This document shows positions 1,149-19,815 of a stretch of 20,000 bases of DNA, one piece after another. The notes under the pieces are model-generated. The model did no database searches and was not told the origin of the DNA. It was given only the letters and a program-made list of their open reading frames with translations. Source of the DNA: an uncultured virus (IMG/VR IMGVR_UViG_3300033066_002227). Taxonomy: Duplodnaviria > Heunggongvirae > Uroviricota > Caudoviricetes. The DNA lies in the IMG/VR virus record IMGVR_UViG_3300033066_002227, one strand, 5' to 3'. Both the position numbers and the translations under genes were made by a program. Position 1 is the stretch's first letter, and each line of letters opens with the position of its first letter.

Positions 1149-1514
1149 ATGTGGACAGAATTTATGGACATGCATTCAGGTGGTGGAACAAAATGCTACT
1201 ATGATAAAATTTATATTGAGGGAACTGCATATGAAGCAATGCAAGATTTCGTTAAAATCTTTAATAGAGATCCAGGAAATACAACGTGTGATACTTGTGG
1301 CGAAGACTTTTCAATTTCAACTTATGCCTCATTAGAAGATTCTTATTATTATAATTCATATTTTTTTCAAAAAAATGGTCAAGTGTCTCTTGAAAAACAT
1401 TATGGGCGTGAAAAGCTCATAGGCAATCATATAATTATATATAAAGACCAAATTGACACTATTGTTAATATGGGCATTGAAAATTACATTAAAAAAATAA
1501 ATGTGTTAGCATGA
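1149..1514 (+). CDS. Hypothetical protein with CxxC motif and C-terminal KK-x5 tag (IKKINVLA*)
   Basis: 121-aa ORF with AAGGA RBS upstream, CDTC motif and ATGA overlap with the next gene. Confidence 0.75.
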   Translation: MWTEFMDMHSGGGTKCYYDKIYIEGTAYEAMQDFVKIFNRDPGNTTCDTCGEDFSISTYASLEDSYYYNSYFFQKNGQVSLEKHYGREKLIGNHIIIYKDQIDTIVNMGIENYIKKINVLA

Positions 1515-1813
1515 TTACAAAATCCGTTTGCACATTATTTACAAAATCTGAACTCATAAAAATTATGAATCAAGATTATTCTCAAATAAAATCTTGGTCA
1601 ATGTTGACTAATAATAAATTAAATGATTATAATATTTTAAAAGATTCTGGTCAATTAGATAGAATACTTATTTACTATTTAAAATATAATAGAATTGTTG
1701 CATTTATTTCATTTTCTTATGAAATAAATGATAATAAAATTACTAATTTTGTTTTGAATGAAATTAAACCATATTCACTAATTGATATTAAAAAAAGGAT
1801 TATGTTAATTTAA
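1511..1813 (+). CDS. Hypothetical protein with C-terminal KK-x5 tag (IKKRIMLI*)
   Basis: 100-aa ORF coupled to both neighbours (ATGA and TAATG overlaps). Confidence 0.7.
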   Translation: MITKSVCTLFTKSELIKIMNQDYSQIKSWSMLTNNKLNDYNILKDSGQLDRILIYYLKYNRIVAFISFSYEINDNKITNFVLNEIKPYSLIDIKKRIMLI

Positions 1814-2274
1814 TGAAAGAGTTATTAAATAAAATAATTAAAAATATATTTATATCTGAGGGAGAGTCACATATAAAATTTATACTTTCTGATAATTCAG
1901 AAATGATTTATGCAACAAATGGCGATTGCTGTTCAGAAACTTGGTTTTCAGATTTTACAGGAATAGATTGTCTTATTAATGAAGAAATTTTTGAAATAGA
2001 AGAATTAGAATTGCCATATGATGGCGAAATGCTTTTAGCACAAAGATCTCGTCAAGAAGAAGATAAATTGTATGGCTATTGTTTTAAAACCCAAAAAGGT
2101 TATGCAACGCTAGAATATAGAAATTCTTCAAATGGCTATTATGGTGGAAGTTGTGGTTTAATTATTCCTAAACCTGATGATCTTGACTATTATTATAAGG
2201 GTTTATATAACGATTATCAAGAAAAGAAAAATGAGATAATATTTCATGAAATAAAAGATGATTGGAGTGCGTAA
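1813..2274 (+). CDS. Conserved phage hypothetical protein (DCC...SNGYYG type)
   Basis: Motifs GDCCSETWF and YRNSSNGYYGG resemble a widespread uncharacterised phage family (from recall, not searched). Confidence 0.7.
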   Translation: MKELLNKIIKNIFISEGESHIKFILSDNSEMIYATNGDCCSETWFSDFTGIDCLINEEIFEIEELELPYDGEMLLAQRSRQEEDKLYGYCFKTQKGYATLEYRNSSNGYYGGSCGLIIPKPDDLDYYYKGLYNDYQEKKNEIIFHEIKDDWSA

Positions 2275-2380
2275 AAACTATCAATTACTTGATATATCTA
2301 TAGTAGAACTCGCAAACTAAATTCTCTAAATTCGCAAAAGAAAAATATCAATAAAGCAACTAAAAGCTCGATTATATTTC

Positions 2381-2417
2381 AACTCTTTTCCAAATTGGAG
2401 AAGAGTTTTTTGTTTTT
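2381..2417 (+). terminator. Rho-independent terminator
   Basis: Stem AACTCTTTTCCA / TGGAGAAGAGTT (one G-U pair) with a 3-nt loop, followed by TTTTGTTTTT. Confidence 0.75.
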
Positions 2418-2423
2418 AAAAGA

Positions 2424-2452
2424 ATGACAAGAATCCGCGACAACGCTATAAT
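2424..2452 (+). promoter_or_regulatory. Sigma70-type promoter for recA
   Basis: ATGACA (2424-2429), 17-nt spacer, TATAAT (2447-2452). AGGTGA RBS at 2461-2466 precedes ATG 2473. Confidence 0.7.
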
Positions 2453-2472
2453 TCAAGTACAGGTGAACGCAC

Positions 2473-3627
2473 ATGAATAAGTCTCTCGAAAAATTTCTTT
2501 CATCATTAAGTGACGAAGATAGTTTAGGATTTTCAATAGCGTCTTCAAGACGCGCCAAAATAGAAGCAATATCAACGGGATGTCATACATTAGATGACGC
2601 CTTAAGTTGTGGCGGATTCCCAAAGGGTAGGGTCTCACAATTATATGGTGAGCCAGGGTCATCTAAAACACTTGTAAGTATGCTTACAATAATCTCAGCT
2701 CAATCTGCAGATCCTGAAGCAGTCCAAATCTTTTATGATGCTGAACAATCATTTGATATTGATTGGTTTGAATCTTTAGGTGGTGATTGTGATCGTCTAA
2801 TTTTGGTTGATGATGATAGTGCTGCTCTAGGAGCCAAACTAATAGAGTCATTGGTTGGTATTCCTCGCGATGATGGCAAAGGCAAAAAACAAGAAGGTGT
2901 TCTTGATAAGATTGCTAAAAAAGAACTTAATTGCAATTTAATTGTAATTGATAGTTTAGGCGCTATAATTCCACCTCTTGAAGAAAGAGCAAAAGTAACT
3001 ACCAATAATATTGGTTTGTTAGCTAGATTTTTAACAACTAATATGAAAAAAGTTGCTTTAGAAGTCAAAAAAGCTAATGTAGTATTAATTGTTATTAACC
3101 ATAAAAAAGAAGGTATGGATATGTATGGTCCAGACCATACATTCTCAGGTGGTAATGCTTATACACATTTCTTATCAGCTAATATTTACCTTCGTCCAGT
3201 TAAATCAAAAGACTCAGCCATCTTAGATGAGAAAGAAAGAAAAGTTGGTGGCAAAGTTGCTTTTACAATTGAAAAGTCAAAATTTGGTCCTTGGCCAAGA
3301 AAAGGTGAATATAAAATTAATTATGCGACAGGATTCGTTGATGTACATGAACAAGTTGCTACATTAGCAATTGACTACGATGTTATTAAAAGACCAAACA
3401 ATGTCACTTATCTTTATGGAGAAGAATCTTTTAGAGGTATAGAGGCTCTTTATACAGCAGTTAAAGAAAAAGAAGGTTTTAAAGAAGAATTATTGACAAA
3501 GATAAATGAAGCGAGAGCTTCAAAAAAGAACATATCAACATCTGATTCCACTGAAAGTGAGGAAGAAAGCGTGGAGGAATCTGATGTTGTTGAAACAAAG
3601 AGGGGAAGAAAAAAGAAAGATGCATGA
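2473..3627 (+). CDS. recA: RecA/UvsX-family recombinase
   Basis: ISTGCHTLDDALSCGGFPKGRVSQLYGEPGSSKT (RecA N-terminal core and P-loop), FYDAEQSFD, Walker B IVIDSLGA, and SGGNA motif. Acidic then basic C-terminal tail. Confidence 0.93.
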   Translation: MNKSLEKFLSSLSDEDSLGFSIASSRRAKIEAISTGCHTLDDALSCGGFPKGRVSQLYGEPGSSKTLVSMLTIISAQSADPEAVQIFYDAEQSFDIDWFESLGGDCDRLILVDDDSAALGAKLIESLVGIPRDDGKGKKQEGVLDKIAKKELNCNLIVIDSLGAIIPPLEERAKVTTNNIGLLARFLTTNMKKVALEVKKANVVLIVINHKKEGMDMYGPDHTFSGGNAYTHFLSANIYLRPVKSKDSAILDEKERKVGGKVAFTIEKSKFGPWPRKGEYKINYATGFVDVHEQVATLAIDYDVIKRPNNVTYLYGEESFRGIEALYTAVKEKEGFKEELLTKINEARASKKNISTSDSTESEEESVEESDVVETKRGRKKKDA

Positions 3628-3740
3628 TTGACATCTTAGTTTAAAGAACTAACTTGTAATCATGAGAAACAAGATGGCTCGCAATGAAGCAGGCTTCTTA
3701 AATTGTAATATAATAAAACACGCAAATAAAAAGGAAACAA

Positions 3741-4433
3741 ATGAGTATTAAACAAGGTGAAGTAAGCTGGGGTGAAGATACTGGAACTACAAAGCAATGG
3801 AATGGTGGCTCAGGTGGTAAAGATACCTTTCTTCGTTTAGAAAAAGGTAAAAACAACGTAAGAGTGATTACAAACCCATTCCAATATGTTGTACATTATT
3901 ACAAACCAAATGTTGATCCAGCTAAAGCTACAAAGACTGACAAATATGGTCATCGTATTATGTGCTCAAGAGCCCATGGTGAATGCCCAGTTTGCAAAGC
4001 TGGAGACAAGCCACAATTAAAATATCTATGTGGTTTGATTGATCGTAAAACTGGAACCTATAAAATTCTAGATTTCTCAACACAAATTTTCAAAGGTATA
4101 AAAGTATATAATGATGACCCAGATTGGGGTCCTCCACAAAACTACGATTTAGATATCGTTGTTGACCCAAGTGGTGGACCATCAGGATACTACAAAGTTG
4201 TTGCTAAACCAGCTAAAGCTTTGACTGCTAATGATCAATTAATTATTGACTCATTAGATTTAGATGAACTTCGTCGTAGAGCTACTGCACCAGAACCCGC
4301 TAAAGTAAAAGAGAAGTTTGATGCAATCCTAAAAGGATTAACATTAGTTGGAAATAACGCAATGTCTTCTTCAGAAGATACAGCTGAATTTCCTGATGCT
4401 GATCATCAACAAACAAATGCTGCACCATTCTAA
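3741..4433 (+). CDS. Phage single-stranded DNA-binding protein (T4 gp32-like)
   Basis: FLRLEKGKNNVRVI, H...C...CPVC zinc ligands, LIDR...KILDF, YDLDI, and an acidic tail ending in PF. Lies directly after recA, with AAGGA RBS. Confidence 0.75.
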   Translation: MSIKQGEVSWGEDTGTTKQWNGGSGGKDTFLRLEKGKNNVRVITNPFQYVVHYYKPNVDPAKATKTDKYGHRIMCSRAHGECPVCKAGDKPQLKYLCGLIDRKTGTYKILDFSTQIFKGIKVYNDDPDWGPPQNYDLDIVVDPSGGPSGYYKVVAKPAKALTANDQLIIDSLDLDELRRRATAPEPAKVKEKFDAILKGLTLVGNNAMSSSEDTAEFPDADHQQTNAAPF

Positions 4434-4448
4434 AATGAATGAATAATT

Positions 4449-4483
4449 AAAAAGGCAAGAGATTAATCTCTTGCCTTTTTTTT
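4449..4483. terminator. Rho-independent (bidirectional-type) terminator
   Basis: Perfect 32-bp palindrome AAAAAGGCAAGAGATT/AATCTCTTGCCTTTTT running into a T-tract, just after the SSB stop. Confidence 0.9.
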
Positions 4484-4516
4484 GTTTATATAATAGTATT
4501 TAGTTGAAGGAAAATA

Positions 4517-4741
4517 ATGATTAAATTAATGTATCATATGAATGATGAAGTAAAAAACTTTGGTAATTTTTATTCAAGAGAAGAGGCTGGCGAACAAATA
4601 TTAAAAAGCCTTAAGCTATGGAACAATGATCTTTATAGTGAAAAAGATGTTAATTTAATAAAATTCATAAATGATAATGATTGGCAAAATGCTAATAAAG
4701 AATGGCGTAAAGTTTCTGGTGAATATTGGACATTTGAATAA
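4517..4741 (+). CDS. Hypothetical protein
   Basis: 74-aa ORF with GAAGGA RBS. Has no KK-x5 tag. Confidence 0.65.
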   Translation: MIKLMYHMNDEVKNFGNFYSREEAGEQILKSLKLWNNDLYSEKDVNLIKFINDNDWQNANKEWRKVSGEYWTFE

Positions 4742-4790
4742 TAAATCGCGATAAATTTAATAAATTACGATAAATTGTTATATTCTTGTT

Positions 4791-5315
4791 ATGACAAGAA
4801 TAATTGGATTTGATGTGTCGTCTCAAAATATAGGCTGGGGCGTTTTTGATTATGAAAAAAATAATAAATCATCTATTAAATTAATAGATTCTGGCGTTAT
4901 CAAACCTTCTAAAAAAGGCTCAACATTAGGCAAGCTAAAAGATGCACAAAATAAAGTATTAGCTGTATTAGATAAATTTAAACCAGATGAAGCTGCAATA
5001 GAAGATATTATTAAATTTATGAAAAACAAAAGTACAGCTAATACTGTTATTGCTTTAGCATCATTTAATAGAATGGTTTGTTTATCTTGTTGGGATAAAA
5101 TTGGCAAAGAGCCAAGTTTGCTAGCTGTAATGACAATTCGTAGCGCTATAAAGCTTAATAAATCATTACCAAAAAAAGATGAAATTCCCAAAGTTATTGA
5201 AGCTCATTTAGGTATAAAATTTCCTTGGATTATGCATAATAATAAAATTAGCTCATCATCATATGATATGTCGGATGGCATTGCTGTTGCCCTCGCTAAG
5301 ATATTGAAATCTTGA
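4791..5315 (+). CDS. ruvC: RuvC-like Holliday junction resolvase
   Basis: IIGFDVSS...GWGV (first catalytic Asp), AAIED (catalytic Glu), C-terminal DMSDGIAVA (DxxD). Sits in a recombination gene cluster. Confidence 0.85.
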   Translation: MTRIIGFDVSSQNIGWGVFDYEKNNKSSIKLIDSGVIKPSKKGSTLGKLKDAQNKVLAVLDKFKPDEAAIEDIIKFMKNKSTANTVIALASFNRMVCLSCWDKIGKEPSLLAVMTIRSAIKLNKSLPKKDEIPKVIEAHLGIKFPWIMHNNKISSSSYDMSDGIAVALAKILKS

Positions 5316-5319
5316 GGAC

Positions 5320-5348
5320 TTGACGCGGCCTATTTGCGTGGCTATATT
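5320..5348 (+). promoter_or_regulatory. Sigma70-type promoter
   Basis: TTGACG (5320-5325), 17-nt GC-rich spacer, TATATT (5343-5348), upstream of ATG 5385. Confidence 0.65.
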
Positions 5349-5384
5349 GTCATGGGCCATAAGTGCCAGAAACCTTGGGATTAA

Positions 5385-5864
5385 ATGATTAATGATATAA
5401 CTTGGCTATCTGATCATATTAAAATTATTAATGATATTTATACTCTAAATCTAAATTTAGATGAATATTTATTACTACATAAAAGCCTAGAGCATTTAAG
5501 TGGTGATCGTATTAGATTTAGAATTGAGTTTAATAAAAAAACTATTGGTGGTATAATGTATACTGATTGGTGTTGTTGCACTTATTTATGGTTTATCCCC
5601 AATAAATTTATTACAAAAGAAAAATTAATGCTTTTAGATAAAAATAAATATTTTATGCCGGTATCAATTACCGTGCCACTTATTACAAATAATTTATTAA
5701 ATATGAATTTTATTGAAGATTTAGTTAAGATTTATGGCAGAAGTCAAAATTGCTTAAAAGCAATTATAGAATTATTTAGCACTTCAGAACATAAATTTTA
5801 TCTTGATATTTTAAAACAACATAATACATTTAAAAAATTACTAATGGTACAAAATGACTTCTAA
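5385..5864 (+). CDS. Hypothetical protein with extended KK tag (FKKLLMVQNDF*)
   Basis: 159-aa ORF overlapping the next gene by 11 nt. Confidence 0.7.
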   Translation: MINDITWLSDHIKIINDIYTLNLNLDEYLLLHKSLEHLSGDRIRFRIEFNKKTIGGIMYTDWCCCTYLWFIPNKFITKEKLMLLDKNKYFMPVSITVPLITNNLLNMNFIEDLVKIYGRSQNCLKAIIELFSTSEHKFYLDILKQHNTFKKLLMVQNDF

Positions 5865-6345
5865 AGAAGAATTAAATAATTTTATTTCTTTTATTCAAGA
5901 TAAATCTGTAAAACTAGCCTCACATTTAACTTTGGATTTATCAAAAGAAGAAATAGAAGAGCTTGTAGATGATTGCTTTCTTTCATCAATAGAAATTACT
6001 ACTATATCAAATGTAAGAAGATTGTCAACACATTTACTTTTCGTAATTAAAACACCATTTGATAAAACTAATAACATTTCTGGTATTAATTTGAATCTTG
6101 TCGATGATAAATATTTTATATTAACAAATTATTTTGTACCCTTTATTACTTTTAGTACTTATAATATTGGTTTCATTAAAACGTTAGATATGTTTAATTT
6201 TAAGCACCTTAAAAAATCAGATATTTTTAAAAAAATAAATGAAGCATTAGACAATAACAAAGAGTTTACCCAAATAAAAGCAATTGCAATGAAAAATCCA
6301 GAATACAAAAAAATCATGTTAATACAGGATGATGATAAAAAATGA
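5854..6345 (+). CDS. Hypothetical protein with extended KK tag (YKKIMLIQDDDKK*)
   Basis: 163-aa ORF. Weak similarity to the previous ORF (DK/NKYF....VP.IT). ATGA overlap with dnaJ. Confidence 0.7.
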   Translation: MTSKEELNNFISFIQDKSVKLASHLTLDLSKEEIEELVDDCFLSSIEITTISNVRRLSTHLLFVIKTPFDKTNNISGINLNLVDDKYFILTNYFVPFITFSTYNIGFIKTLDMFNFKHLKKSDIFKKINEALDNNKEFTQIKAIAMKNPEYKKIMLIQDDDKK

Positions 6346-7319
6346 ATCCAGATCAAGCATTTGAAATTCTAGGACTTGATAAAGAAAATAGTTCAACTGA
6401 TGAAATTAATAAAACCTTTAGAAAATTAGGAGCCAAATATCATCCTGACGCTAACAAAGACCCAGACGCAGAAAAGAAATTCAAAGAAATAAATGAAGCC
6501 AAAACTGTTGCTTTAGACTTTTTAGAGAATCCTGGTAAATATAATCCTCAATTTCCTGGATTTAATGGATTTGATTTTAGCGGGTTTAATCCATTTGCAG
6601 ATTTATTTAATCATGGCAATTTTCAAAGACAAAGAGAAGTTCATAATGTTTCTATTGCTGAAACAATTACATTTGAAGAGTCTATTCTTGGTTGCGATAA
6701 AGAAATTGAATTTCGCAGAGATGTAAAATGTACAGTTTGTAATGGTGAAGCTGGCAAGAAAAAGTCAAATGGTTGTAAAGACTGTAATGGTTTTGGTCAA
6801 AAAACTGTTAGACAAGGCAACATAACGTTTGCTGCACCATGCCAAACATGTAGGGGCAGAAATGTTAAATTTGATAATTGCACCAATTGCAACGGTAAGG
6901 GTGTTAAGCCTGAAATTAAAAAGTTAAATATCAAAATTCCAGCCGGAATTGAAACGGGAAATATTCTCAGTTTAAATCAAGCTGGCAATTTTGCTCAAAC
7001 ATCCCCAATGGGTGACTTTTATTCAAATGTACATATTCATCTTTCTGTAAAACCTCACGCTACCTTTAAAAAAGTAGATAATGACGTTGTAACAAGTATA
7101 AATATTTCATTGCTTGATGCCTTAAAAGGATTAAAAATTAATGTTCCAACTGTATATGGCGATAAAGAATTAAATATTTTCAAAAATGTTAAAAATAAAG
7201 ATTTAATTTCAATTAAAAATTGTGGTGTTAAAAACAAAGGTGATCATGTAGTTGAGATTAATATTGATTATCCAAAAGACACAGAGTCTTTAATTGAACT
7301 TTTAGAAAAATCAAAATGA
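6342..7319 (+). CDS. dnaJ: DnaJ (Hsp40) co-chaperone, class A
   Basis: J-domain with HPD (KYHPDANKDPDAEKKFKEINEA), G/F-rich linker, four CxxCxGxG-type repeats (CTVCNG, CKDCNGFG, CQTCRG, CTNCNGKG) and C-terminal domain (IKIPAGI, VPTVYG, GDHVV). Confidence 0.95.
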   Translation: MNPDQAFEILGLDKENSSTDEINKTFRKLGAKYHPDANKDPDAEKKFKEINEAKTVALDFLENPGKYNPQFPGFNGFDFSGFNPFADLFNHGNFQRQREVHNVSIAETITFEESILGCDKEIEFRRDVKCTVCNGEAGKKKSNGCKDCNGFGQKTVRQGNITFAAPCQTCRGRNVKFDNCTNCNGKGVKPEIKKLNIKIPAGIETGNILSLNQAGNFAQTSPMGDFYSNVHIHLSVKPHATFKKVDNDVVTSINISLLDALKGLKINVPTVYGDKELNIFKNVKNKDLISIKNCGVKNKGDHVVEINIDYPKDTESLIELLEKSK

Positions 7320-7600
7320 TAACTTATCGCATAACACTTAAATCAACTTTGAAATATACGCTAGATTATAATGAGCCATTTTCTGATATCCCAGTAAATC
7401 AACATGATACTTTAGTAAAATTAATTACTAAAATATTATTAAGGAATAGTACTCATTATCATTTCAATGATTTTGAACTTCTCAATAATTCTGAGATAAT
7501 TATTGTAAAATTAGATAATTTTAAATATATTGAAACTGTAAATAAAGAAGAATTTAATAAAGCTTATTTAGAAGCTAAGAAATTGGCAATGCTAAAATGA
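7316..7600 (+). CDS. Hypothetical protein, KK-x5 tag (AKKLAMLK*)
   Basis: 94-aa ORF, ATGA-coupled on both sides. Confidence 0.75.
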   Translation: MITYRITLKSTLKYTLDYNEPFSDIPVNQHDTLVKLITKILLRNSTHYHFNDFELLNNSEIIIVKLDNFKYIETVNKEEFNKAYLEAKKLAMLK

Positions 7601-7899
7601 AATTATATTATTCAGGAATAAGATCAGCATTTGAGCCAATATCAAATTATATTGATTTTCAAAATATTGAAATTGAATTAAATAATAAATATGATAAATT
7701 GAGATTGCGTACTCCTTTAGAAAGTCATTTATATATTTTTTATTTTGAATATAATTTCACAATAGATAAATTATTTCAAGAGGATTTTTCAATTCTATCT
7801 GTTGACACAGAAACTAAAGAATATGAGTGGTTAACTATTAATGATGAAATAGTTAAAAAAGCTCTTATAAAATGTAAGAAAAGAGCTTTATTATTATGA
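7597..7899 (+). CDS. Hypothetical protein, KK-x5 tag (CKKRALLL*); paralog family A
   Basis: 100-aa ORF with an MKLYYS start and HLxxFY motif shared with the next two genes. Confidence 0.75.
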   Translation: MKLYYSGIRSAFEPISNYIDFQNIEIELNNKYDKLRLRTPLESHLYIFYFEYNFTIDKLFQEDFSILSVDTETKEYEWLTINDEIVKKALIKCKKRALLL

Positions 7900-8204
7900 A
7901 GTTATATTTTTCTTCAACTAATTATAATGAACTAATTTCTACTAAAGATCGAGTTTTAAATATTCTTGATGATGACTGTAGACAGGAGGTTGAGTATTAT
8001 TATAATGATGATAATTATAATAATTTAAATAAACATTTAACAACTTTTTATATAATCTCATCATTTAAAGATGAAATCTTTGATAAAAGTTGGAGACTTA
8101 TATGTGTAGATTTAGAAAATAAAACTTCAGAAATGTTTTCTTTAGAAGATCCAATTATTACAAAAGCTTTAGCTGATGCTAAAAAGCTAGCTATGTTGCT
8201 TTAA
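7896..8204 (+). CDS. Hypothetical protein, KK-x5 tag (AKKLAMLL*); paralog family A
   Basis: 102-aa ORF: MKLYFSS, YNDDNYNNLNKHLTTFYII, WRLIC, DPIITKA. Confidence 0.8.
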   Translation: MKLYFSSTNYNELISTKDRVLNILDDDCRQEVEYYYNDDNYNNLNKHLTTFYIISSFKDEIFDKSWRLICVDLENKTSEMFSLEDPIITKALADAKKLAMLL

Positions 8205-8218
8205 ATAAAGAAGATTTT

Positions 8219-8512
8219 ATGAAAAAATTATATTTTTCTTCAATTTATTATTTAGAAAATAAAAATCTTCGCGCAAAGATTCCATCTGTATTAGAATCTT
8301 ATAATGAAGATAAAAATTTTAATAATTTAATTAATCACTTAATGGCCTTCTATATTATAGAAGGTAATACAGAAATTTTTCTTCCAGATTGGCGAATTAT
8401 ATGCTTATATGTAGAATCAACATCTGTTAAACATATAGAAATATTTGCTTTAAACGACCCTTTTATTCAAAAATCTTATTTAGAAGCTAAAAAGCTGGCG
8501 ATGCTTCTTTAA
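8219..8512 (+). CDS. Hypothetical protein, KK-x5 tag (AKKLAMLL*); paralog family A
   Basis: 97-aa ORF: MKKLYFSS, YNEDKNFNNLINHLMAFYII, WRIIC, DPFIQKS. Clear paralog of 7896..8204. Confidence 0.8.
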   Translation: MKKLYFSSIYYLENKNLRAKIPSVLESYNEDKNFNNLINHLMAFYIIEGNTEIFLPDWRIICLYVESTSVKHIEIFALNDPFIQKSYLEAKKLAMLL

Positions 8513-11687: not shown

Positions 11688-12526
11688 TGTTTGGAATACT
11701 CAAAGATTTTGGCTATTAAGCTTTCAGCATCAAATGACTCTTCTGGAGTCAAATCTAATGCTGGTGGTAAGCTATTAAAATCAACAGCAGTAGTTGGATC
11801 ATTTAGGCGCATCTTGCAAAGATTCTTTAAATCCTCTTCTGAACCATAAAATACATTAAAATCAGAATCTACTCCACCAGGTAAAACTAATCCCTTATCT
11901 CCGTCAAATTGCCAAAATAACTGTTTTTTATTTTGTTTGGCCCAAGGTGCAGGCAAAGTTGGTTGCATTTTTAAAATTTGATCTAAGGCTCCCAAATAAT
12001 CCAATGAATCTTTTACTGATACTCTTGGATATGCAGCATGCCAATATAGTTTATTAGCTAAATCTGGAGCGTCTAAGTTATTACAATATCCTTGCCAATA
12101 CCAGCTGCCAGAATATATAATACAAGGCTTATTAGTTCTGAATTCAATTAATTCAACAATTTTTCTTAAATGATTAATTAAAGCTTCGCCTCTTAATGCA
12201 ATGTTTGGCTCTTCAAAATCAACGCATAAAGGTAAATCATCAGCTGTCCAACCTATTTTCTCAGCATTGTTTAAAAAATAATTAACCTGCTCCTCAGGTT
12301 TATCGCCAGTAATCCAATGATATAAACCCCTGGTTAATTTGCCTTCCATTAGCTTCCAGTTTAATGGAGCTGCTGGATCCGCGCTCCATTTTCCATGGGT
12401 ACATTTGCCAACAGCAAATTTAATATTATTATTGCATAGCAAATCCCAATTCAATGGGTCAAATTTTCCATCATTATTCAAATCACGTAATTGCCACTTT
12501 GCGTAGTCTATTCCTAAAAGAGTCAT
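11684..12526 (-). CDS. GH25 family lysozyme (muramidase), probable endolysin
   Basis: LGIDYAKWQ, RGLYHW, catalytic DxE (VDFE), IIYSG, LYWHAAY, FWQF, GVDSDFN. Confidence 0.9.
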   Translation of the reverse strand: MTLLGIDYAKWQLRDLNNDGKFDPLNWDLLCNNNIKFAVGKCTHGKWSADPAAPLNWKLMEGKLTRGLYHWITGDKPEEQVNYFLNNAEKIGWTADDLPLCVDFEEPNIALRGEALINHLRKIVELIEFRTNKPCIIYSGSWYWQGYCNNLDAPDLANKLYWHAAYPRVSVKDSLDYLGALDQILKMQPTLPAPWAKQNKKQLFWQFDGDKGLVLPGGVDSDFNVFYGSEEDLKNLCKMRLNDPTTAVDFNSLPPALDLTPEESFDAESLIAKIFEYSKQ

Positions 12527-12557
12527 GTTAATATGCCAAATTCTACCAATATTGTAA

Positions 12558-12584
12558 TTTAAGAAAGCTTTAATGTTATTATGA
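12558..12584 (+). repeat. Orphan copy of the KK-x5 tag sequence with no gene body
   Basis: TTT AAG AAA GCT TTA ATG TTA TTA TGA (FKKALMLL*) is preceded directly by in-frame TAA (12555-12557). Its TGA overlaps ATG 12581. Confidence 0.65.
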
Positions 12585-12826
12585 AAATACTATATAGTAC
12601 AATTCCATTAATTTCTAATTGTTATCATAATAGTTGGATACATGATACTCCTAGCAGTAATCCAAGTATAAGAGAAAATTTAGGAAGTTATATAAAGTAC
12701 TTAATTGAAGATGGCCTAGATATGCATTTTAGAATTTTTGAAAATGTATTTGATGATAATAATGTTTTAAAATATACTAATGAAGTAGACCCTGCAATAA
12801 TAAAAAAGATTATAATATTATTATGA
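12581..12826 (+). CDS. Hypothetical protein, KK-x5 tag (IKKIIILL*)
   Basis: 81 aa. MKILYS start and E.V....IKK end. Confidence 0.75.
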   Translation: MKILYSTIPLISNCYHNSWIHDTPSSNPSIRENLGSYIKYLIEDGLDMHFRIFENVFDDNNVLKYTNEVDPAIIKKIIILL

Positions 12827-13047
12827 ATATAATATACTCAGTTTTTCCAGATTTATCTCATACAGAAGCTATTGATAGGATTCCATCAAATGCATTTAAT
12901 TTATTATCCTATATTAATACAGGAGTGCCAGAATCATTTTTAGCAGGAAAAATTAAAATTTATCGTTATGAATTTGATGAATTTAAAATTCTTAAAAGAG
13001 AACAAGTTTCTATTAGGGAAATTAAGAAAGTAATGCTTTTATTATGA
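12823..13047 (+). CDS. Hypothetical protein, KK-x5 tag (IKKVMLLL*)
   Basis: 74 aa. MNIIYS start, L.SYI shared with the previous ORF, ATGA coupling. Confidence 0.75.
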   Translation: MNIIYSVFPDLSHTEAIDRIPSNAFNLLSYINTGVPESFLAGKIKIYRYEFDEFKILKREQVSIREIKKVMLLL

Positions 13048-13313
13048 GTAATGTAATTTATAAAACTTATATTATTGGATTTATTGGTGAAGAAAATAAA
13101 ATTCTTCATGTTAATTCTTATTTGGAAAGAGTTAAAAACTACCCTGAGGCGTCAAGTTTGCTTGGTTTTCTAAATTTAATAGAAGACTTGCACTATATAA
13201 AACATAGGTTTTCTTATGACGAAATTCTCTGTATTATTTTTAATGTTACTAAAATTATTAAAGTGGAAAAAGTTCCAGCTTCTCAAGTAAAGAAAGCGAG
13301 AATGCTGTTATGA
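13044..13313 (+). CDS. Hypothetical protein, KK-x5 tag (VKKARMLL*)
   Basis: 89 aa, ATGA coupling on both sides. Confidence 0.75.
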   Translation: MSNVIYKTYIIGFIGEENKILHVNSYLERVKNYPEASSLLGFLNLIEDLHYIKHRFSYDEILCIIFNVTKIIKVEKVPASQVKKARMLL

Positions 13314-13630
13314 ATTTAAAAAAGTTTTATTTAAGTGGATATAGTTTTGAAAATTATTCATTTATTACAATAGAAGATTTTATTTCTAAAAATAAACAAT
13401 ATGAATTTAGATCAAATCTATTGCTTTTTTTAAATCATTATATAAGAACTACAAATAGAAGGAGTTTATCTTCATATTTAAACGCACTATCAAAATCAAA
13501 TTATATTATTAAATCTTTTATTAATGGCGATTATGTCATATATAAAGCTTATTTAGGTCAAAATAATGACGTGGTTTCTTTTGAAATGGTTAATTATAAT
13601 TTAATTAAGAAAATTCTAATGATGAGATAA
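13310..13630 (+). CDS. Hypothetical protein, KK-x5 tag (IKKILMMR*)
   Basis: 106 aa. Last gene of this array, convergent with the HTH gene. Confidence 0.75.
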   Translation: MNLKKFYLSGYSFENYSFITIEDFISKNKQYEFRSNLLLFLNHYIRTTNRRSLSSYLNALSKSNYIIKSFINGDYVIYKAYLGQNNDVVSFEMVNYNLIKKILMMR

Positions 13631-13631
13631 T

Positions 13632-14072
13632 TTACCATTCATCTTCGCGGATTTCTTTAATTCTATTGAAGATTTCCTGAATTTTCGCATCTGTTTCAAT
13701 TAGTTTCATAATTTTCTTTTTGGAACCACCATAAATCTTTTTGCCATTTTTATAATCAACATTGCCATTAATGGCTTTAGTGATAGAAGACTGATTTATG
13801 CCAAGTTTTTTAGCTATTTCTGATTGAGTCCAACCCTTGGCATATAATTCTAAAATTTCAGCTTGTCTTGAAGTAAGGTTAGCAAAAATTAAGCGCCAAA
13901 CTTCTTCCTTAAGCTTATCCTTTAATTCCTCTATTTCCTCATTATAAGCAAATGGATTTAGTTTTTTATATATAGAGTCGTCATTTGAGAATGCCTCAAG
14001 CATATCATGTGAACAAACTCTTTCTAATAATAAATGCTGATATTTATCGCTGCGGTTGGCCCTAATTCCCAT
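13632..14072 (-). CDS. Sigma-70 region 4 / LuxR-type helix-turn-helix protein
   Basis: LTSRQAEILELYAKGWTQSEIAKKLGINQSSITKAING. At 146 aa it lacks a recognisable sigma region 2. Confidence 0.8.
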   Translation of the reverse strand: MGIRANRSDKYQHLLLERVCSHDMLEAFSNDDSIYKKLNPFAYNEEIEELKDKLKEEVWRLIFANLTSRQAEILELYAKGWTQSEIAKKLGINQSSITKAINGNVDYKNGKKIYGGSKKKIMKLIETDAKIQEIFNRIKEIREDEW

Positions 14073-14167
14073 GTTTTATAAATATATTTGTTGATTGTTA
14101 ATAAGCACGAGCACTAATAATTGCATTATACAAAATTAACACTCATGCTTATAATATAACAATCAAA

Positions 14168-15130
14168 TTAAGAATTTACTTTTGAGGTTTTTTGCAAAAT
14201 GCTTTCAACATCTATATTGATAGATTTTAAATATTCTTTTTTATCATTAATTCTATTATTAATAGGCTCATGATAAATTTTCTTCTCTTCTAAACTTTTA
14301 GTTCTGTGGCAACAAACGCATAAATTTTGACATTTATCAAGTTCATTAACCACATCTTCAAAAGAATATTTTGAATGAGAAACCATATTTGCAAGAGTAT
14401 CTATTTTACTACTATGATCAATATGATCTAATTCATTTGCCCACCAACCATAATAATTATTGCAAATTGCACAAGGTGAACTTTTCTTCCAAATTGTTGC
14501 AAAATGTTTGTCATTATCAATGCATTTAAAATTTGGATTACTAAGATTTTTAAATGTCTCTTTTTTATGACAAATAGCGCATAATAATCTACATTTTTCT
14601 ATTTCTGCTGAAATAACTTCCCAAGTATAACCTTGTAATATTAGTTTTGCCACACCTAATGTTTCTTTACCATTTCGATATTTTGTAGATGGATCTATAT
14701 GATCCCAGTCCATTGCTTCTGGTGAGAATTTAGCAGAGCATATTGCACAACATAATGATTTTTTTAATTCATTATTTCTTTGTTTATTTTCTTTACGTTT
14801 CAAATTTATTTGAATTGATTTTCTAGCTCGATTTTTTTCCTTATTTTTATGATCAGATTTTTGCTTAATTTTATTATTACAAGCATTGCATTTTGCACGA
14901 TATCCATCAGCATAAGCCACATCTTTTTGAAAATTTGCAATTGGTTGAAGTTGATTTTTTAAAATACAATCAGGATTTTTACATATTTTTTCAGTAATAT
15001 TATAAATCATATTACTTTTATTATTTAACCTTTTTTGTCTTTTAAGTTTTATACATACTTTACATTGAGTTTTATTTGTAAAAAATTCTGTTAATTCTTT
15101 ATTATTACCACAATTAGTACATGTTTTCAT
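14168..15130 (-). CDS. HNH-family endonuclease with two tandem HNH-like domains and N-terminal zinc fingers
   Basis: Repeat 1: CAICS...MDWDHIDPSTK...EIEKCRLLCAICH. Repeat 2: CAICN...ELDHIDHSSK...ELDKCQNLCVCCH. N-terminal CxxC pairs. Start set at ATG 15130 after an AAGG RBS (alternative 15160). Confidence 0.8.
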   Translation of the reverse strand: MKTCTNCGNNKELTEFFTNKTQCKVCIKLKRQKRLNNKSNMIYNITEKICKNPDCILKNQLQPIANFQKDVAYADGYRAKCNACNNKIKQKSDHKNKEKNRARKSIQINLKRKENKQRNNELKKSLCCAICSAKFSPEAMDWDHIDPSTKYRNGKETLGVAKLILQGYTWEVISAEIEKCRLLCAICHKKETFKNLSNPNFKCIDNDKHFATIWKKSSPCAICNNYYGWWANELDHIDHSSKIDTLANMVSHSKYSFEDVVNELDKCQNLCVCCHRTKSLEEKKIYHEPINNRINDKKEYLKSINIDVESILQKTSKVNS

Positions 15131-15134
15131 AGTT

Positions 15135-15446
15135 TTAGCCTTTATTGTTATTTCTTGCATAAGCTTCTTTTTTTAAATCTGATTCACATCCTTTACATAT
15201 GTGTTGCATTTTATCTGGCGAATCTGATTTTTTATTAAACTCTGAATTATTTTTAAGCTCTTTACAACGATTACATGTTTTTTCTTTTACAAAAATTTGT
15301 TCATTAACATATGAAATTTTTCTTTTTTGCTCTTTATCTTTTCTGCAATAATTACAATATTTATAAAGATAACCAGTTTTTTTAATTTTATAAAAATCAT
15401 TTTCTGTTAAGTTTTCTCTTGTACATTCTGAACATTTTATACTCAT
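15135..15446 (-). CDS. Cys-rich zinc-finger protein resembling the N-terminal domains of phage HNH endonucleases
   Basis: Two units of CxxC...F....CxxC (CSEC/CNYC; KTCNRCKELK..EF...CKGC). GAGGG RBS upstream on the minus strand. Confidence 0.7.
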   Translation of the reverse strand: MSIKCSECTRENLTENDFYKIKKTGYLYKYCNYCRKDKEQKRKISYVNEQIFVKEKTCNRCKELKNNSEFNKKSDSPDKMQHICKGCESDLKKEAYARNNNKG

Positions 15447-15646: not shown

Positions 15647-16069
15647 ATGAAAAATTATAAAATTACACCGTTTGAGTATAAAAAAACAAAGCTATGCCCT
15701 ATCTGTAATTCTAAATTAGAAATAAAACATCATCAAGATTATGACGATGTTAAAAATAAAAGGAAAATATGCAAAGACAAAGGTCATTTATTTTTATTAA
15801 ATAATGAATATGGTGAAAATTATGATCATTTCTATCTGGAAAGGGTTGGTTTAAATAAAACTGTAATTGATTCAAATTATGAATATGATTTTATTTTTTA
15901 TTTTGATAAAAGAATGTTTTTTAAATATAACATCCCAACAGATTCAAATCTTATTTCAGCTAGAACAATATTTGATCTATCAAATAATGAAGATTTAGCA
16001 TTTAGAATACGAGAAGCCATTTTAGACAAAAACGAAAATTTCTTAAAGAAACTATTATTAATATTATGA
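15647..16069 (+). CDS. CPxC zinc-ribbon protein, KK-x5 tag (LKKLLLIL*)
   Basis: CPICNSKL...ICKDKGH. First gene of the array. Confidence 0.8.
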   Translation: MKNYKITPFEYKKTKLCPICNSKLEIKHHQDYDDVKNKRKICKDKGHLFLLNNEYGENYDHFYLERVGLNKTVIDSNYEYDFIFYFDKRMFFKYNIPTDSNLISARTIFDLSNNEDLAFRIREAILDKNENFLKKLLLIL

Positions 16070-16416
16070 ATTTAATTCAAGAATTTGAAAATATAATTAA
16101 TTGCCCAATATGTGATTGCACGCTATCCATTCTAGATAATGGCAGGCCTATAATAAAAAAAATATGTGGGGCAAATAATCATGATTTTATTCTGTGCAGG
16201 GATTTTAAAGTCAATATAATTCAACAAATAAATTATATTAAAACAACAGAAGTCAGCTTAATGGCTATGTATTTTTTACACAGTAATACAACTTCATATA
16301 TCATTTATCTTAAAAACAAAACAAAAACTGTATCTGAAGAAGATTACCAAAGGCTTTATATTTATTTCAAACATAATGACCCTGATAAAATCAAGAAAGT
16401 GTTGATGCTATTATGA
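16066..16416 (+). CDS. CPxC zinc-ribbon protein, KK-x5 tag (IKKVLMLL*)
   Basis: CPICDCTL...ICGANNH. ATGA coupling. Confidence 0.8.
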   Translation: MNLIQEFENIINCPICDCTLSILDNGRPIIKKICGANNHDFILCRDFKVNIIQQINYIKTTEVSLMAMYFLHSNTTSYIIYLKNKTKTVSEEDYQRLYIYFKHNDPDKIKKVLMLL

Positions 16417-16679
16417 AACATATTGTTTATTTTCCAATCTTTACAAGAGATCCTTTTTTTAAATTAACTAAAAAATATTTGCAAAGAAATGCTTTGGAAA
16501 AATACCATGATTCATTATCAAAATGTATTGGAGAATATATTGAGTGTGATTATAAATTTATTGCATGTATGAGATTTTATAAAATTTCATTTGATATAAG
16601 CATCAATTATTTATATGAAAATTTAGAGTGGGAACTGGTTGATAATAAAATTATCAAGAAAGTATTAATGCTATTATGA
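16413..16679 (+). CDS. Hypothetical protein, KK-x5 tag (IKKVLMLL*)
   Basis: 88 aa, no CPxC, ELVDNKIIKK end. Confidence 0.75.
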   Translation: MKHIVYFPIFTRDPFFKLTKKYLQRNALEKYHDSLSKCIGEYIECDYKFIACMRFYKISFDISINYLYENLEWELVDNKIIKKVLMLL

Positions 16680-17029
16680 AAAAATGTCCAGTATGTAACT
16701 CCGAATTAATTTTAACAGAAGACTTGTTTGAACAAGTGCTTGGTCCACCAAGTGAAAATCACTTATATAAATGTTCTTGTTGTAAAAATTATACATCAAT
16801 TAATGATGAAACAAATACTTATATTTTAGAAGAAAAATTTAATTTAATTAATTTTACTTTTTGGATTGTATATTCTGAATGGGCCCTATTGTATTATTTA
16901 AAAGATTACTCAATAACAGTAACACAAATAAAAGCCTTTGAATTATCTGATCCAGGGGTTTCAATATTTAAAAATATTTTTATTAAACAAGACTTAAATT
17001 CATTAAAGAAAATGATAATGTTATTATGA
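16676..17029 (+). CDS. CPxC zinc-ribbon protein, KK-x5 tag (LKKMIMLL*)
   Basis: CPVCNSEL...CSCC. Confidence 0.8.
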   Translation: MKKCPVCNSELILTEDLFEQVLGPPSENHLYKCSCCKNYTSINDETNTYILEEKFNLINFTFWIVYSEWALLYYLKDYSITVTQIKAFELSDPGVSIFKNIFIKQDLNSLKKMIMLL

Positions 17030-17358
17030 TATTTAAAAACTTAAATAAATTAGAAGAAGACCCTGATAATTATTATTTTTATGATCATATGGGATACTTA
17101 GATAATAAGAATTATTATTGGTATAGTAAATCTACTATTGCTAATATTTTTCATAATAAAGAATTTAAAATATATTCTTCATTAAAAACAATGTGTTTTA
17201 ATAATGAAAGAATATTGAAAAACATAACTCATAAAGTTACCGTTTCAAAAGTCGATCTTAAAAATTTATGCTCTGAAGATTCTTCCGAAGATTATATAAA
17301 ATGTTATGTGGAAGAAGTTCCAAAAGAATTAATTAAAAAGCTGGTAATGTTATTATGA
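17026..17358 (+). CDS. Hypothetical protein, KK-x5 tag (IKKLVMLL*); paralog of next gene
   Basis: MIF.N.N.LEED...YY and YSSLK..C shared with 17355..17669. Confidence 0.8.
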   Translation: MIFKNLNKLEEDPDNYYFYDHMGYLDNKNYYWYSKSTIANIFHNKEFKIYSSLKTMCFNNERILKNITHKVTVSKVDLKNLCSEDSSEDYIKCYVEEVPKELIKKLVMLL

Positions 17359-17669
17359 TATTTATCAATAACAATAATTTAGAAGAAGATAGTGAGGCTT
17401 ATTATACTTATAATATTTGTTTTAAAGAGGAAAATATAGAAGATACCTATCATATTATAACTATTCAATATTTATTTGAAGATTTTTCTTTTAAACCATA
17501 TTCTTCATTAAAAGGATTATGTACTTTTTATGAAAATGTGAATTTAAAATGCGTATTCAAATGTAAAATTCCTAAATCAGAACTTAAAATATTCTCTGAT
17601 AGAAAAATAAAATTTTCTTATAAAATAATTCCTCCCAAAATTATTAAAAAGCTGGTAATGCTATTATGA
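17355..17669 (+). CDS. Hypothetical protein, KK-x5 tag (IKKLVMLL*); paralog of previous gene
   Basis: MIFINNNNLEEDSEAYY and YSSLKGLC. Confidence 0.8.
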   Translation: MIFINNNNLEEDSEAYYTYNICFKEENIEDTYHIITIQYLFEDFSFKPYSSLKGLCTFYENVNLKCVFKCKIPKSELKIFSDRKIKFSYKIIPPKIIKKLVMLL

Positions 17670-17965
17670 ACAACAATACATGTCCATTTTGCAGCAGAGA
17701 ATTAACGGTACAATTTTCCAAAAATTGTGAAAGAATTACTCATTTATATATGAGATCTAGTTCTGGCGAATTATTAGAAATTTATCTTAATGATGATGAA
17801 CCAAATATAATCTCTTTATTTAATGGTTTTGATTTAAAAGAAATGCATTTAAATTATTTAGAAAAAAATATCTTTATTAAAGATAATAATACCTATAAAT
17901 ATATAAGATCTTTATTTCTTAAATATGATTTTGACAAAATCAAGAAAGTTGTAGCAATACTATGA
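17666..17965 (+). CDS. CPxC zinc-ribbon protein, KK-x5 tag (IKKVVAIL*)
   Basis: CPFCSREL...CERITH. Confidence 0.8.
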   Translation: MNNNTCPFCSRELTVQFSKNCERITHLYMRSSSGELLEIYLNDDEPNIISLFNGFDLKEMHLNYLEKNIFIKDNNTYKYIRSLFLKYDFDKIKKVVAIL

Positions 17966-18291
17966 ACTGTCCTATTTGTGAAAAAAAATGCACTCAAGAA
18001 GCCAATAGATTTCATTGTATGAAATACTATAAAGATGGTTCTTTAGAACATTGTTATACATACAGAACAAATCCAACAATTGAAACAGTTGAACGTTGGT
18101 GCGATCTTTATGATGAAGATAGTGGTAATTCTTTTAAATTAAAAAAAATTAATGATGAAGCTACTGACACAGAATGTGTACTTTTTGGATATTGGATTCA
18201 CATTAAAGATATTAAAACGTATAATTTAATTAAAAATGGTATAATAGGTAAAGATTTTCCTCTATTAAAAAAGCTATTAATGTTAAAATGA
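17962..18291 (+). CDS. CPxC zinc-ribbon protein, KK-x5 tag (LKKLLMLK*)
   Basis: CPICEKKC...CMK...H. IKD..TY..I shared with the previous ORF. Confidence 0.8.
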   Translation: MNCPICEKKCTQEANRFHCMKYYKDGSLEHCYTYRTNPTIETVERWCDLYDEDSGNSFKLKKINDEATDTECVLFGYWIHIKDIKTYNLIKNGIIGKDFPLLKKLLMLK

Positions 18292-18608
18292 AAATAATAT
18301 GCCCTATATGTAAAAATACAATGACTGTATTCTCTGATGATCATTTTTATTGTAAATGCGATAATTACAAAGTCGTAATGTTTAGACAATCAAAATCGGC
18401 AGAATATTTCTACTGTGATAACTATACTTTATATGTTATAGTTGACATGGAATATTATGGTGAATTATATTATGACCAAAATCGCAATGATTACTTAGAC
18501 GATTATAATTATCAAGCGTTTAATACTAAAAAAGAATTTAAATTAATAAAAGAAGCATTCTTGAAACAAGATATTAATTTGATAAAGAAAATAGTAGCAT
18601 TAACATGA
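18288..18608 (+). CDS. CPxC zinc-ribbon protein, KK-x5 tag (IKKIVALT*)
   Basis: CPICKNTM...CKC and AFLKQDINLIKK. Confidence 0.8.
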   Translation: MKIICPICKNTMTVFSDDHFYCKCDNYKVVMFRQSKSAEYFYCDNYTLYVIVDMEYYGELYYDQNRNDYLDDYNYQAFNTKKEFKLIKEAFLKQDINLIKKIVALT

Positions 18609-18919
18609 GCACTTGTCCATTTTGTGGTAATGTATTATTTTATTTTGATTGGAATGATGCATCTTGCTATCTAAAAAATAGCCATCAATATTCAAGCTTA
18701 CTTTATACAGAAATTTTTGAAATTTATTTTAAAAATAGTGAACGCATAAACTCTACTATACAGTTAACTATAGATTATTTACCAAGGGACACAAATATAG
18801 AGTTAAATTATTTTGGTAATAAAATTATTATTTCTGATTTAAAAATTAGTGAATATTTAAAGAAAAATATTATAGCTTTTAATTTTAATAATTTAAAGAA
18901 AATAGTGGCATTAACATGA
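18605..18919 (+). CDS. CPxC zinc-ribbon protein, KK-x5 tag (LKKIVALT*)
   Basis: CPFCGNVL...CYLKNSH. Confidence 0.8.
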   Translation: MSTCPFCGNVLFYFDWNDASCYLKNSHQYSSLLYTEIFEIYFKNSERINSTIQLTIDYLPRDTNIELNYFGNKIIISDLKISEYLKKNIIAFNFNNLKKIVALT

Positions 18920-19269
18920 ATTATTTAAATTTTGAAGATTTAACAATTTGCGCTATTTGTAATAGTAAATTATTTGATGAAGGTGATCAATTAGTTTGCG
19001 ATGATGGTCATTGGGCCCTAGAAATAGGGGATCATTATTATGCAATTAATAATAATGAAAAACATTTTATATTTAAAAATAAATTAGGTATTTTTAGTCT
19101 TAAAAAAGACAAAACTGCCATTTTTTTGGATGTTAGTGTATTTAATAGTGATTGGGAATGTATGGGCTATATAGAAAGTAAAATTGATGAAGGTCATGCC
19201 AACAAGATTATTCATGCTTGTAAAACAAATGATTTCAAATATTTAACAAAATTAATAATTTTATTTTAA
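18916..19269 (+). CDS. CxxC zinc-ribbon protein, variant tag (LTKLIILF*)
   Basis: CAICNSKL...CDDGH. Confidence 0.8.
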   Translation: MNYLNFEDLTICAICNSKLFDEGDQLVCDDGHWALEIGDHYYAINNNEKHFIFKNKLGIFSLKKDKTAIFLDVSVFNSDWECMGYIESKIDEGHANKIIHACKTNDFKYLTKLIILF

Positions 19270-19815
19270 ATGGCACCAAAAGTAATAACCCCCAATTTTA
19301 CCCTAGGAACTACTGTAATAAATTTACCTTTTCCTTTATCTTATATTGAAATGCCTACATTAAAAATGAATAAGTTAGATAAAGAAGTTTATTGTCCATT
19401 TTGCAATAATATTTTAGAGCTAACCGCTTATAGTTGGAATAGTCAGTATACCACTGAATGTAAAAATGATTTTAATTTAAATAAAGATGAAAAATTATTT
19501 TATTCATATTATATGAATTATAATTTTAGCACATTTGGTCACCATAAAATAACAGAACTATCATATGATTTTTTAGATTTAAATATTGAGCATGTAAATG
19601 GATTTTTTACCAATTATCATATTTATAAAGATGAAGATCAAATGTTATTAACATTTAGCCCATATCAATCTAAAATTTCTGTCGATCCATTTTCAAGTGT
19701 TCAAGCAGATGAGGTGATGTATATTGACCTTAATTTAAAAGCTTATGAAGATCTTAAAAAAGCATTTGTACATTTTGATTTAAAATATATTAAAAAAGTT
19801 ATATCCCTTTCTTAA
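19270..19815 (+). CDS. CPxC zinc-ribbon protein, KK-x5 tag (IKKVISLS*)
   Basis: CPFCNNIL...ECK and LKKAFVHFDLKYIKK. The true start may be a downstream ATG. Confidence 0.75.
   Translation: MAPKVITPNFTLGTTVINLPFPLSYIEMPTLKMNKLDKEVYCPFCNNILELTAYSWNSQYTTECKNDFNLNKDEKLFYSYYMNYNFSTFGHHKITELSYDFLDLNIEHVNGFFTNYHIYKDEDQMLLTFSPYQSKISVDPFSSVQADEVMYIDLNLKAYEDLKKAFVHFDLKYIKKVISLS

Follow-up and report, generated by a model that had tools for sequence, protein, structure and literature searches.

We found that a 20,000-nt stretch of DNA from an uncultured Caudoviricetes virus (IMG/VR record IMGVR_UViG_3300033066_002227; hereafter the window, 26.7% GC, 41 genes) carries a short C-terminal peptide tag, in its local form two lysines, five residues and a stop codon, on many otherwise dissimilar small proteins. 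The tag is real, limited to one viral clade, conserved at the peptide level and borne by a library of swappable small proteins. An earlier, sequence-only reading of the window had described 22 open reading frames (ORFs) with this ending, one T-K variant (18916) and three copies with short extra tails (5385, 5854 and 10729); an ORF check recovered all 22 with K-K plus five residues plus stop, and the variant and extended copies likewise agree with the description. KK occupies positions –7/–6, counted back from the last residue, in 22 of the 41 window genes (background KK frequency 0.0137; binomial test, P-value 2e–30) and offsets –6, –8 and –9 in none. That reading had proposed comparing the ends with shuffled controls: over six frames, KK-x5-stop with at least three hydrophobic residues occurs 30 times versus 6.9 ± 2.9 (maximum 15) in 100 order-3 Markov simulations. 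Lysine –6 is invariant among the 23 KK/TK genes of the window. In all 23, codon –2 has T as its middle base (Leu 20, Ile 2, Met 1) and varies in its first and third bases, i.e. conservation is three-periodic.

Judged by protein alignments, the window belongs to an uncultured clade of jumbo myophages akin to Bacillus phage G. Alignment of its SSB yielded 80 related IMG/VR loci on contigs of up to 481 kb, and RecA, SSB, RuvC, DnaJ and primase keep the window's order and strand in 68/68 related loci that have all five. The complete genome of one clade member, the myophage G019 (447,763 bp), encodes Pol III alpha, a TubZ-like tubulin, trigger factor and bS21. G019 and phage G share 54% identity in the major capsid protein, and the SSB of phage G is 35% identical to that of the window. 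Phage G (Donellivirus) is the closest cultured relative; no cultured clade member was found in the phage collection. A direct search with the window's RecA gave no related viral locus, and cultured matches were only distant (≤30%). Window DNA is present in river, wastewater and activated-sludge runs, among which no RNA run is listed. The five best among the matches listed for EF-Ts of G019 are from Polyangiaceae (37–39%), a weak hint at the host.

Tagged ORFs were counted in the clade with a filter requiring K/R at –6 and F/L at –2 with permissive –5 and –3 positions, set against 30 offset controls; G019, G034–G036, G007 and G024 were read whole and the remaining genomes in part. In G019, 97 of 786 ORFs passed (control mean 4.7), about 5 of the 97 being false positives, including PanD, bS21 and an RNA ligase; tag-like ends of PTH2 may be native. 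Counts elsewhere were 18/67 in G034, 12/52 in G035, 9/68 in G036, 9/44 in G007, 6/27 in G020, 25/349 in G012 (48% GC), 6/161 in G016, 4/124 in G024, 3/108 in G001, 8/575 in G017 (control 2.9, maximum 8), 2/311 in G031, 2/128 in G022, 1/155 in G021 and 1/50 in G006. Besides G019 and G012, three near-complete genomes thereby have no more than a handful of tags. No tagged ORF was found in G002 (50 ORFs), G026 (78) or G037 (68; clade membership unconfirmed). Dialects run through whole genomes: the window and G034–G036 use KKL-x-ML-x, G019, G007 and G024 use KLKAF-x, and G012 often has C-x-[KR]-h-x-x-[FL]-L. The KK pair, first taken for the invariant core, has to be replaced by the register common to the dialects, namely K/R at –6, a hydrophobic residue at –5, F/L at –2, one free residue and the stop. 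Besides –6, a basic residue stands at –7, –4 or –9 depending on the dialect. Over whole records the A-F type pattern occurs 106 times in G019 versus 24 in the control. Tag expansion is optional within the clade, since this pattern is at control level in G031 (16/14), G021 (26/28), G012 (7/5) and G017 (17/13).

Outside the clade, the tag was found in none of the 251 phage G ORFs examined, a sample from 150 of 498 kb (mean of the controls 1.7), and in none of 55 sampled ORFs of Atu_ph07. Across IMG/VR, K-x-x-K-L-K-A-F-[LIF]-stop matched 50 stretches versus 73 for its Glu-ending version, so there is no virome-wide excess; a tagged ORF lay in the flanks of 28 of the 50, 12 of these in the contig of G019, and a longer pattern found nothing. 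An initial DNA pattern was discarded: it gave 107 stretches with arrays in four loci (three contigs), and the remainder looks like chance.

The bodies to which the tag is attached are diverse, as the sequence-only reading had held. BLAST of the 26 window bodies without their tails gave two firm pairs (7896/8219 and 17026/17355) plus two weak ones, and 106 G019 proteins collected with a looser filter form 95 BLAST families. No tagged window protein exceeds the Pfam cut-off (weak best hits: Pfam S27e, E 0.01; PHROGs, E 0.002–0.006); the best ESM Atlas match of gene 7896 (0.79, Nmad4) is a lead only. Tagged G019 proteins are small (median 99 amino acids, aa) and none of the 97 has a transmembrane-like segment, versus 29/490 untagged ones (P-value 0.008). 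CxxC motifs are found in 30/97 tagged (N-terminally) and 32/490 untagged proteins. Tyrosine content is 7.5% versus 4.5%, and median body pI 6.1 versus 6.5. The statement that no recognisable enzyme carries the tag holds inside the window; outside it, a deoxynucleoside monophosphate (dNMP) kinase does so in G024, and its orthologs in G019, G017, G002 and G022 lack the tail. Repeat proteins of the HRxDGPA (MORN-like) type are tagged in the clade (25/30 in one family), while among their best 150 relatives outside it, mostly long repeat proteins, one tag-like end was seen by eye. As the outside relatives are essentially tailless, the HRxDGPA fold is independent of the tail. A few conserved families retain tag-like ends across genomes. 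The same tail ends beta-hairpin repeats, a 289–367-aa family and the kinase; by these comparisons, the tail is portable between proteins.

Selection acts mainly on the peptide, given the synonymous changes, the strict terminal position and the gain of the tail by the kinase in one lineage, and here too the sequence-only reading is borne out. The strict motif plus stop closes 57 long ORFs of G019 and lies inside open frames 3 times (31 versus 2 in the KK lineage), and the register persists at 26–48% GC. Codons of the G019 tags are near background (AAA in 77/95 Lys –6 codons versus 0.81; TTT in 79/90 Phe –2 codons versus 0.90), with all four Ala codons in use. The allele of gene 7316 in the related strain L289, 44% identical as a protein, ends in KKLMMLK and differs within the tag by three synonymous codon changes and one conservative change; a foreign body in the 7316 slot of other strains is thereby ruled out. 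Gene 9117 and P0018 share 47% identity overall and a nearly invariant tail, and the G019 homolog of 9117 ends in G019's own tag variant.

The synonymous variation speaks for the peptide, but there are also nucleotide-level signals, two of which, an AAG bias and an orphan copy, had escaped the sequence-only reading. They could mean that the tag is mainly a DNA or RNA element, serving as a recombination arm and in translational coupling of a cassette array, with the peptide a by-product homogenised by gene conversion; we regard this as unlikely. Gene 8219 is absent from L289 and from a contig of run X6, where the flanking sequences meet within the tag of 7896, the left crossover point, and that of 8219. 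This one event places breakpoints within the repeat, as expected of a recombination arm, but the two genes are paralogs, so a crossover is expected in their most similar part. The match of a run X13 contig is limited to a tag and the next start (18263–18298). Lys codons of the window tags are AAG in 18/45 cases versus 12/221 in the bodies of the same genes (P-value 1e–8), with corresponding values of 14/40 versus 20/211 in G034, 6/17 versus 4/57 in G036 and, slightly, 54/230 versus 126/815 in G019; possible causes of this enrichment are common descent, gene conversion and a weak part in coupling. TGA is the stop codon of 17/23 window tags, and in every case it forms an ATGA overlap with the gene that follows. 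An orphan copy without a body, F-KKALMLL-stop (12561..12584, +), lies in the 54 nt that separate the endolysin start from gene 12581, overlaps the start of the latter and has an in-frame stop two codons upstream; it falls within the segment that holds the inverted sigma-like gene described below. Such orphans are rare (1/32; 2/59), and this copy, the only one among 32, is probably what remains of a gene that was lost. A primary nucleotide function also fits poorly with the three-periodic conservation, with the synonymous changes between strains and with the 30/97 G019 tags that are followed by a convergent gene or by none in the next 15 nt. Pairing of the window tags with the anti-Shine–Dalgarno sequence is weak and barely above recoded controls (mean –2.1 versus –0.7 kcal/mol); six of seven untagged core starts reach –5.6 to –8.8 kcal/mol (RuvC –1.5). 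We therefore ruled out the tag as a ribosome-binding site. In a secondary role, the tail does provide a site of crossover through which genes are lost and gained.

A structural by-product, in which one or a few ancestral folds need their last helix for stability, is highly unlikely. Zinc-ribbon and HRxDGPA families recur among the tagged proteins, in an AlphaFold2 (AF2) model of a tagged HRxDGPA-repeat protein (pLDDT 95.7) the tail helix (99–111) is confidently placed after the repeat, and homology too deep for BLAST could still link small bodies. Against this stand the 95 families of a single genome, the unlike folds that share the tail, and the orthologs and relatives that fold without it. 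The tail is probably a C-terminal docking helix read by one putative receptor, a reading drawn from its constant spacing to the stop, the invariance of two side chains, the freedom of the last residue and dialects that extend over whole genomes. The terminal helix of the sequence-only reading accordingly finds support in the AF2 model and in the strict register, with the single receptor as the putative part. A C-terminal capsid-loading signal, by which proteins would enter the prohead through scaffold, portal or a Bcs1-like ATPase and be injected with the DNA, would suit small, soluble, diverse and rapidly exchanged proteins, but is rather unlikely. It would mirror the T4 capsid-targeting sequence (CTS) of IPI–IPIII, likewise a portable terminal peptide of about 10 residues with two key positions on small unrelated proteins of arms-race type (PMC9026906, in part). 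Phage BCS1 ATPases are proposed to translocate folded head-packaged proteins in passages of PMC7824862, and the clade has such an ATPase. However, the T4 signal is an N-terminal propeptide cleaved by gp21 on a few basic proteins, while the motif here is C-terminal on up to about 90 mildly acidic ones (3/23 window bodies exceed pI 8), and it avoids the virion modules of G019 (0/75 ORFs). GCATA, a putative late motif, precedes 15/37 genes of the G019 structural region (260–366 kb) versus 13/188, and 1/10 leaders of tagged arrays, a small sample. Loading would also require about 90 different cargos, some of 290–370 aa, plus the dNMP kinase, and would have to accommodate three sister genomes with few tags. 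As an observation in its own right, GCATA, which also precedes the window's endolysin, is a candidate late-promoter element.

DnaK typically binds a hydrophobic core with basic flanks. A non-proteolytic hub or surface, be it peripheral membrane anchoring, binding to DnaJ/DnaK or trigger factor, or assembly of the tagged proteins with one another through the helix, is likewise a fairly improbable reader. The last 10 residues carry a net charge of about +2 with hydrophobics in an i, i+3 rhythm, the hydrophobic moment of the tail is 0.26–0.36, proteins with transmembrane segments lack the tag, and the clade encodes DnaJ and trigger factor. Membrane or chaperone binding, though, would require no fixed distance to the stop, and hydrophobicity is modest in the KLKAF dialect (mean 0.5 versus 0.76 in the window).

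A proteolytic machine of the AAA+/Clp type is our tentative choice for the receptor of the docking helix, favoured because the clade core has a ClpP/ClpR pair, a Bcs1/YjoB-like ATPase and an M41-like peptidase, and G017 a transfer-messenger RNA (tmRNA). At least two ClpP-family genes occur in 18/20 clade records; one protein of the G019 pair has an intact Ser-His-Asp triad and the other does not. The core ATPase (L199:9774-11132 in G019) has a strongly conserved N-terminal domain, and the stand-alone peptidase (HEAGH; L218:5477-6136 in G007, with orthologs) is a core gene near Pol III alpha. The tag-like ends of these two proteins are not strictly kept and were not used. The tmRNA of G017 (L236:10047-10403) encodes a canonical tag unlike the tail, and a ClpX zinc domain was found in 0/20 clade records. 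In the mechanism we propose, the last 7–12 residues would form a basic-hydrophobic helix, recognised jointly with the free C-terminus. As an exchangeable library, the tagged genes would encode small soluble binders directed at the host and probably belong to the early or middle class. The receptor would be either a host unfoldase that works with the ClpP/ClpR core of the phage or the phage-encoded Bcs1/YjoB-like ATPase, and the tail would serve as a handle, shortening the lifetime of the effector or tethering the effector and its bound host target to the protease. The shared tail would also let whole genes be lost, gained or supplied with it by crossover. A bolder version, which we hold to be doubtful, sees a recombining library of up to about 100 substrate adaptors, the variable Tyr- and Zn-rich body gripping a host protein and the constant helix docking on the AAA+/Clp machine (ClpP/ClpR core or Bcs1-like ATPase).

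Several observations weigh against a proteolytic reader. The Clp pair and the ATPase are also present in genomes without tag excess (G021, 26 versus 28; G017, 17 versus 13) and hence do not predict tag number. These Clp genes are known from records of relatives, outside the 20 kb of the window, whose own AAA gene (3–680) is not an ortholog of the core ATPase (28% over 114 aa). The last residue of the tail is the least constrained, charged or polar in 58/187 tags, where ssrA and MuA end nonpolar. Degrons of ClpX are described as unstructured (PMC12723719, in part) and the tail models as a helix; the ClpX-binding (XB) anchor of SspB binds ClpX at any chain position (PMC12373786, in part), and since XB works anywhere in a chain, an XB-like reading leaves the fixed distance to the stop unexplained. 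Part of the conservation, the AAG bias and the orphan copy, lies at the nucleotide level. A complex prediction of the G019 ATPase, ClpP, ClpR-like protein and residues 62–112 of a tagged repeat protein (score 0.00, controls not folded) counts neither for nor against such a reader.

The tail behaves like a terminal sorting or docking signal, and membership in a known family is not established. C-terminal degrons include the basic-nonpolar MuA signal, C-motif 2 RRKKAI (PMC8138137 Table 1, in part), and like the tail ssrA, MuA C-motif 2 and the LpxC tail are terminal and basic, then nonpolar (passages of PMC8138137 and PMC12723719). The tail differs from AAA+ degrons by its fixed penultimate residue and K(–6), free last residue, modelled helix and presence on up to 12% of ORFs. 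It does not have the nonpolar –LAA type end of ssrA and C-motif 1, its penultimate residue being F/L and its last one variable; compared with MuA, it is basic at –6. The charged or polar ends also make the Tsp-like degron put forward by the sequence-only reading a poor fit within its degron option. The XB of SspB and Clp adaptors, including the ClpS adaptors proposed to be phage-borne, share with the tagged proteins a variable binding body and a short C-terminal anchor (PMC12373786, PMC7226468 and PMC7824862, each in part). Known Clp adaptors number one or a few per genome and XB is position-independent; the tagged set is a recombining library and its tail almost exclusively terminal. The tagged bodies are unrelated, whereas the arrays of phage G consist of paralogs and its zinc-ribbon family has a different end motif; expansions of small zinc-ribbon genes are common to the clade and that phage. 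In phage G the expansion reaches about 35 copies, with tandem arrays of more than 30 genes (PMC7824862 and PMC5646251, in part). A full-text literature search, with subscription literature mostly outside its coverage, gave no description of the tail. The passages of PMC7824862, PMC13573597, PMC5646251, PMC7226468, bioRxiv 10.64898/2026.09.14.751636, PMC12373786, PMC8138137, PMC12723719 and PMC9026906 deal with the T4 CTS, with degrons and adaptors of Clp and with the untagged phage G expansions and do not describe it; supplements of PMC7824862 could show such tails. With its hydrophobics at –5 and –2, the tail matches the register of XB. Like the tail, HbYX tails of proteasome activators have a hydrophobic residue, an aromatic or Leu penultimate residue, any last residue and a free carboxylate, but they sit on ring-shaped activators, the present tail on about 90 small proteins. 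No 20S proteasome gene was found among the scanned G019 proteins.

In the window, tagged genes are inserted into an untagged clade core scaffold (2473..10732, +) comprising RecA (2473), SSB (3741), RuvC (4791), DnaJ (6342) and primase (9983); further untagged genes encode AAA, DHFR, matrixin-like, GH25, sigma-like and HNH proteins. All tagged genes lie on the plus strand. Genes of 121 aa (1149..1514; KKINVLA-stop at 1491-1514) and 100 aa (1511..1813; KKRIMLI-stop at 1790-1813) precede the scaffold. Within it, a 159-aa gene (5385..5864) has the tag-like KKLLMVQ at 5832 followed by three extra residues, and a sigma70-like promoter match lies upstream of it (5320-5348), in a window where such matches are at background level (158 versus 148 ± 12). 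The 163-aa gene 5854..6345 has KKIMLIQ at 6307 followed by DDDKK, an extension that overlaps the dnaJ Shine–Dalgarno sequence and is retained in L289, where an extra untagged 128-aa gene (L289:144-530) stands between its ortholog and dnaJ. Genes of 94 aa (7316..7600; KKLAMLK-stop at 7577-7600), 100 aa (7597..7899; KKRALLL-stop at 7876-7899) and 102 aa (7896..8204; KKLAMLL-stop at 8181-8204) follow, then the 97-aa paralog of the last (8219..8512; 40% identical; tag at 8489-8512), a 289-aa gene (9117..9986; KKLKMLL-stop at 9963-9986) and a 136-aa gene (10729..11139; KKLLLLM at 11104, then DNIT) that adjoins a convergent gene.

Two coupled arrays complete the set. The first (12581..13630) consists of genes 12581, 12823, 13044 and 13310 with tags at 12803, 13024, 13290 and 13607, its last gene facing a convergent one. 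The second (15647..19815) comprises twelve genes, 15647, 16066, 16413, 16676, 17026, 17355, 17666, 17962, 18288, 18605, 18916 (TK) and 19270, with tags at 16046, 16393, 16656, 17006, 17335, 17646, 17942, 18268, 18585, 18896, 19246 and 19792; many of them have an N-terminal CxxC. Directly after its last gene, a CxxC-type start (19823-20000) runs into a stop after 21 codons, with coding-like sequence in frame beyond, possibly a broken next cassette. A segment on the minus strand (11136..15446) contains the matrixin-like, GH25 endolysin and HNH genes, none of which is tagged; GH25 and M10 are absent from all 80 related loci, and the sigma-like gene of the segment (13632-14072) is inverted relative to 77/77 relatives. 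The DHFR gene (677-1136) is split over two frames near 820-830, with both halves matching DHFR_1, by a real frameshift or an assembly error.

Other genomes of the clade provided further observations. ClpR-like (no catalytic Ser/His) and ClpP genes stand in tandem beside a DksA/TraR gene at L199:1802-2981 (G019) and in 17 other records, and a bS21 gene follows the Bcs1/YjoB-like ATPase in most clade regions examined. A conserved 150–165-aa gene without a family match opens the virion module (L201:133-591 in G019; also in most L108-L187 loci); its product terminates in [KR]-Y-P-E-L-V-stop, sharing K(–6) and L(–2) with the tag. The TubZ-like tubulin, here in a phage-G-related myophage, is at L206:13868-15223 (G019). 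Transfer RNAs with CTA (amber) anticodons occur in G019 (L198:12881-13035), G017 (L236:12924-13255) and G012 (L255:14731-14804), and one with TTA in G017.

Small orphan genes without an assigned role make up a large share of jumbo-phage genomes, and one portable label of 7–12 residues, carried by as many as one gene in eight, offers a handle on about 100 of them. The identity of its reader would at once decide between roles as injected cargo, as short-lived effectors and as protease adaptors. Since the label is short, a reporter test is possible without phage culture, and if it proved to be a new orthogonal degron, anchor or packaging tag it would have practical use. If the adaptor library were true, it would be a bacterial-virus counterpart of the F-box and SOCS-box libraries, i.e. 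a programmable destruction of host defence proteins that is retargeted by gene swaps at the tail.

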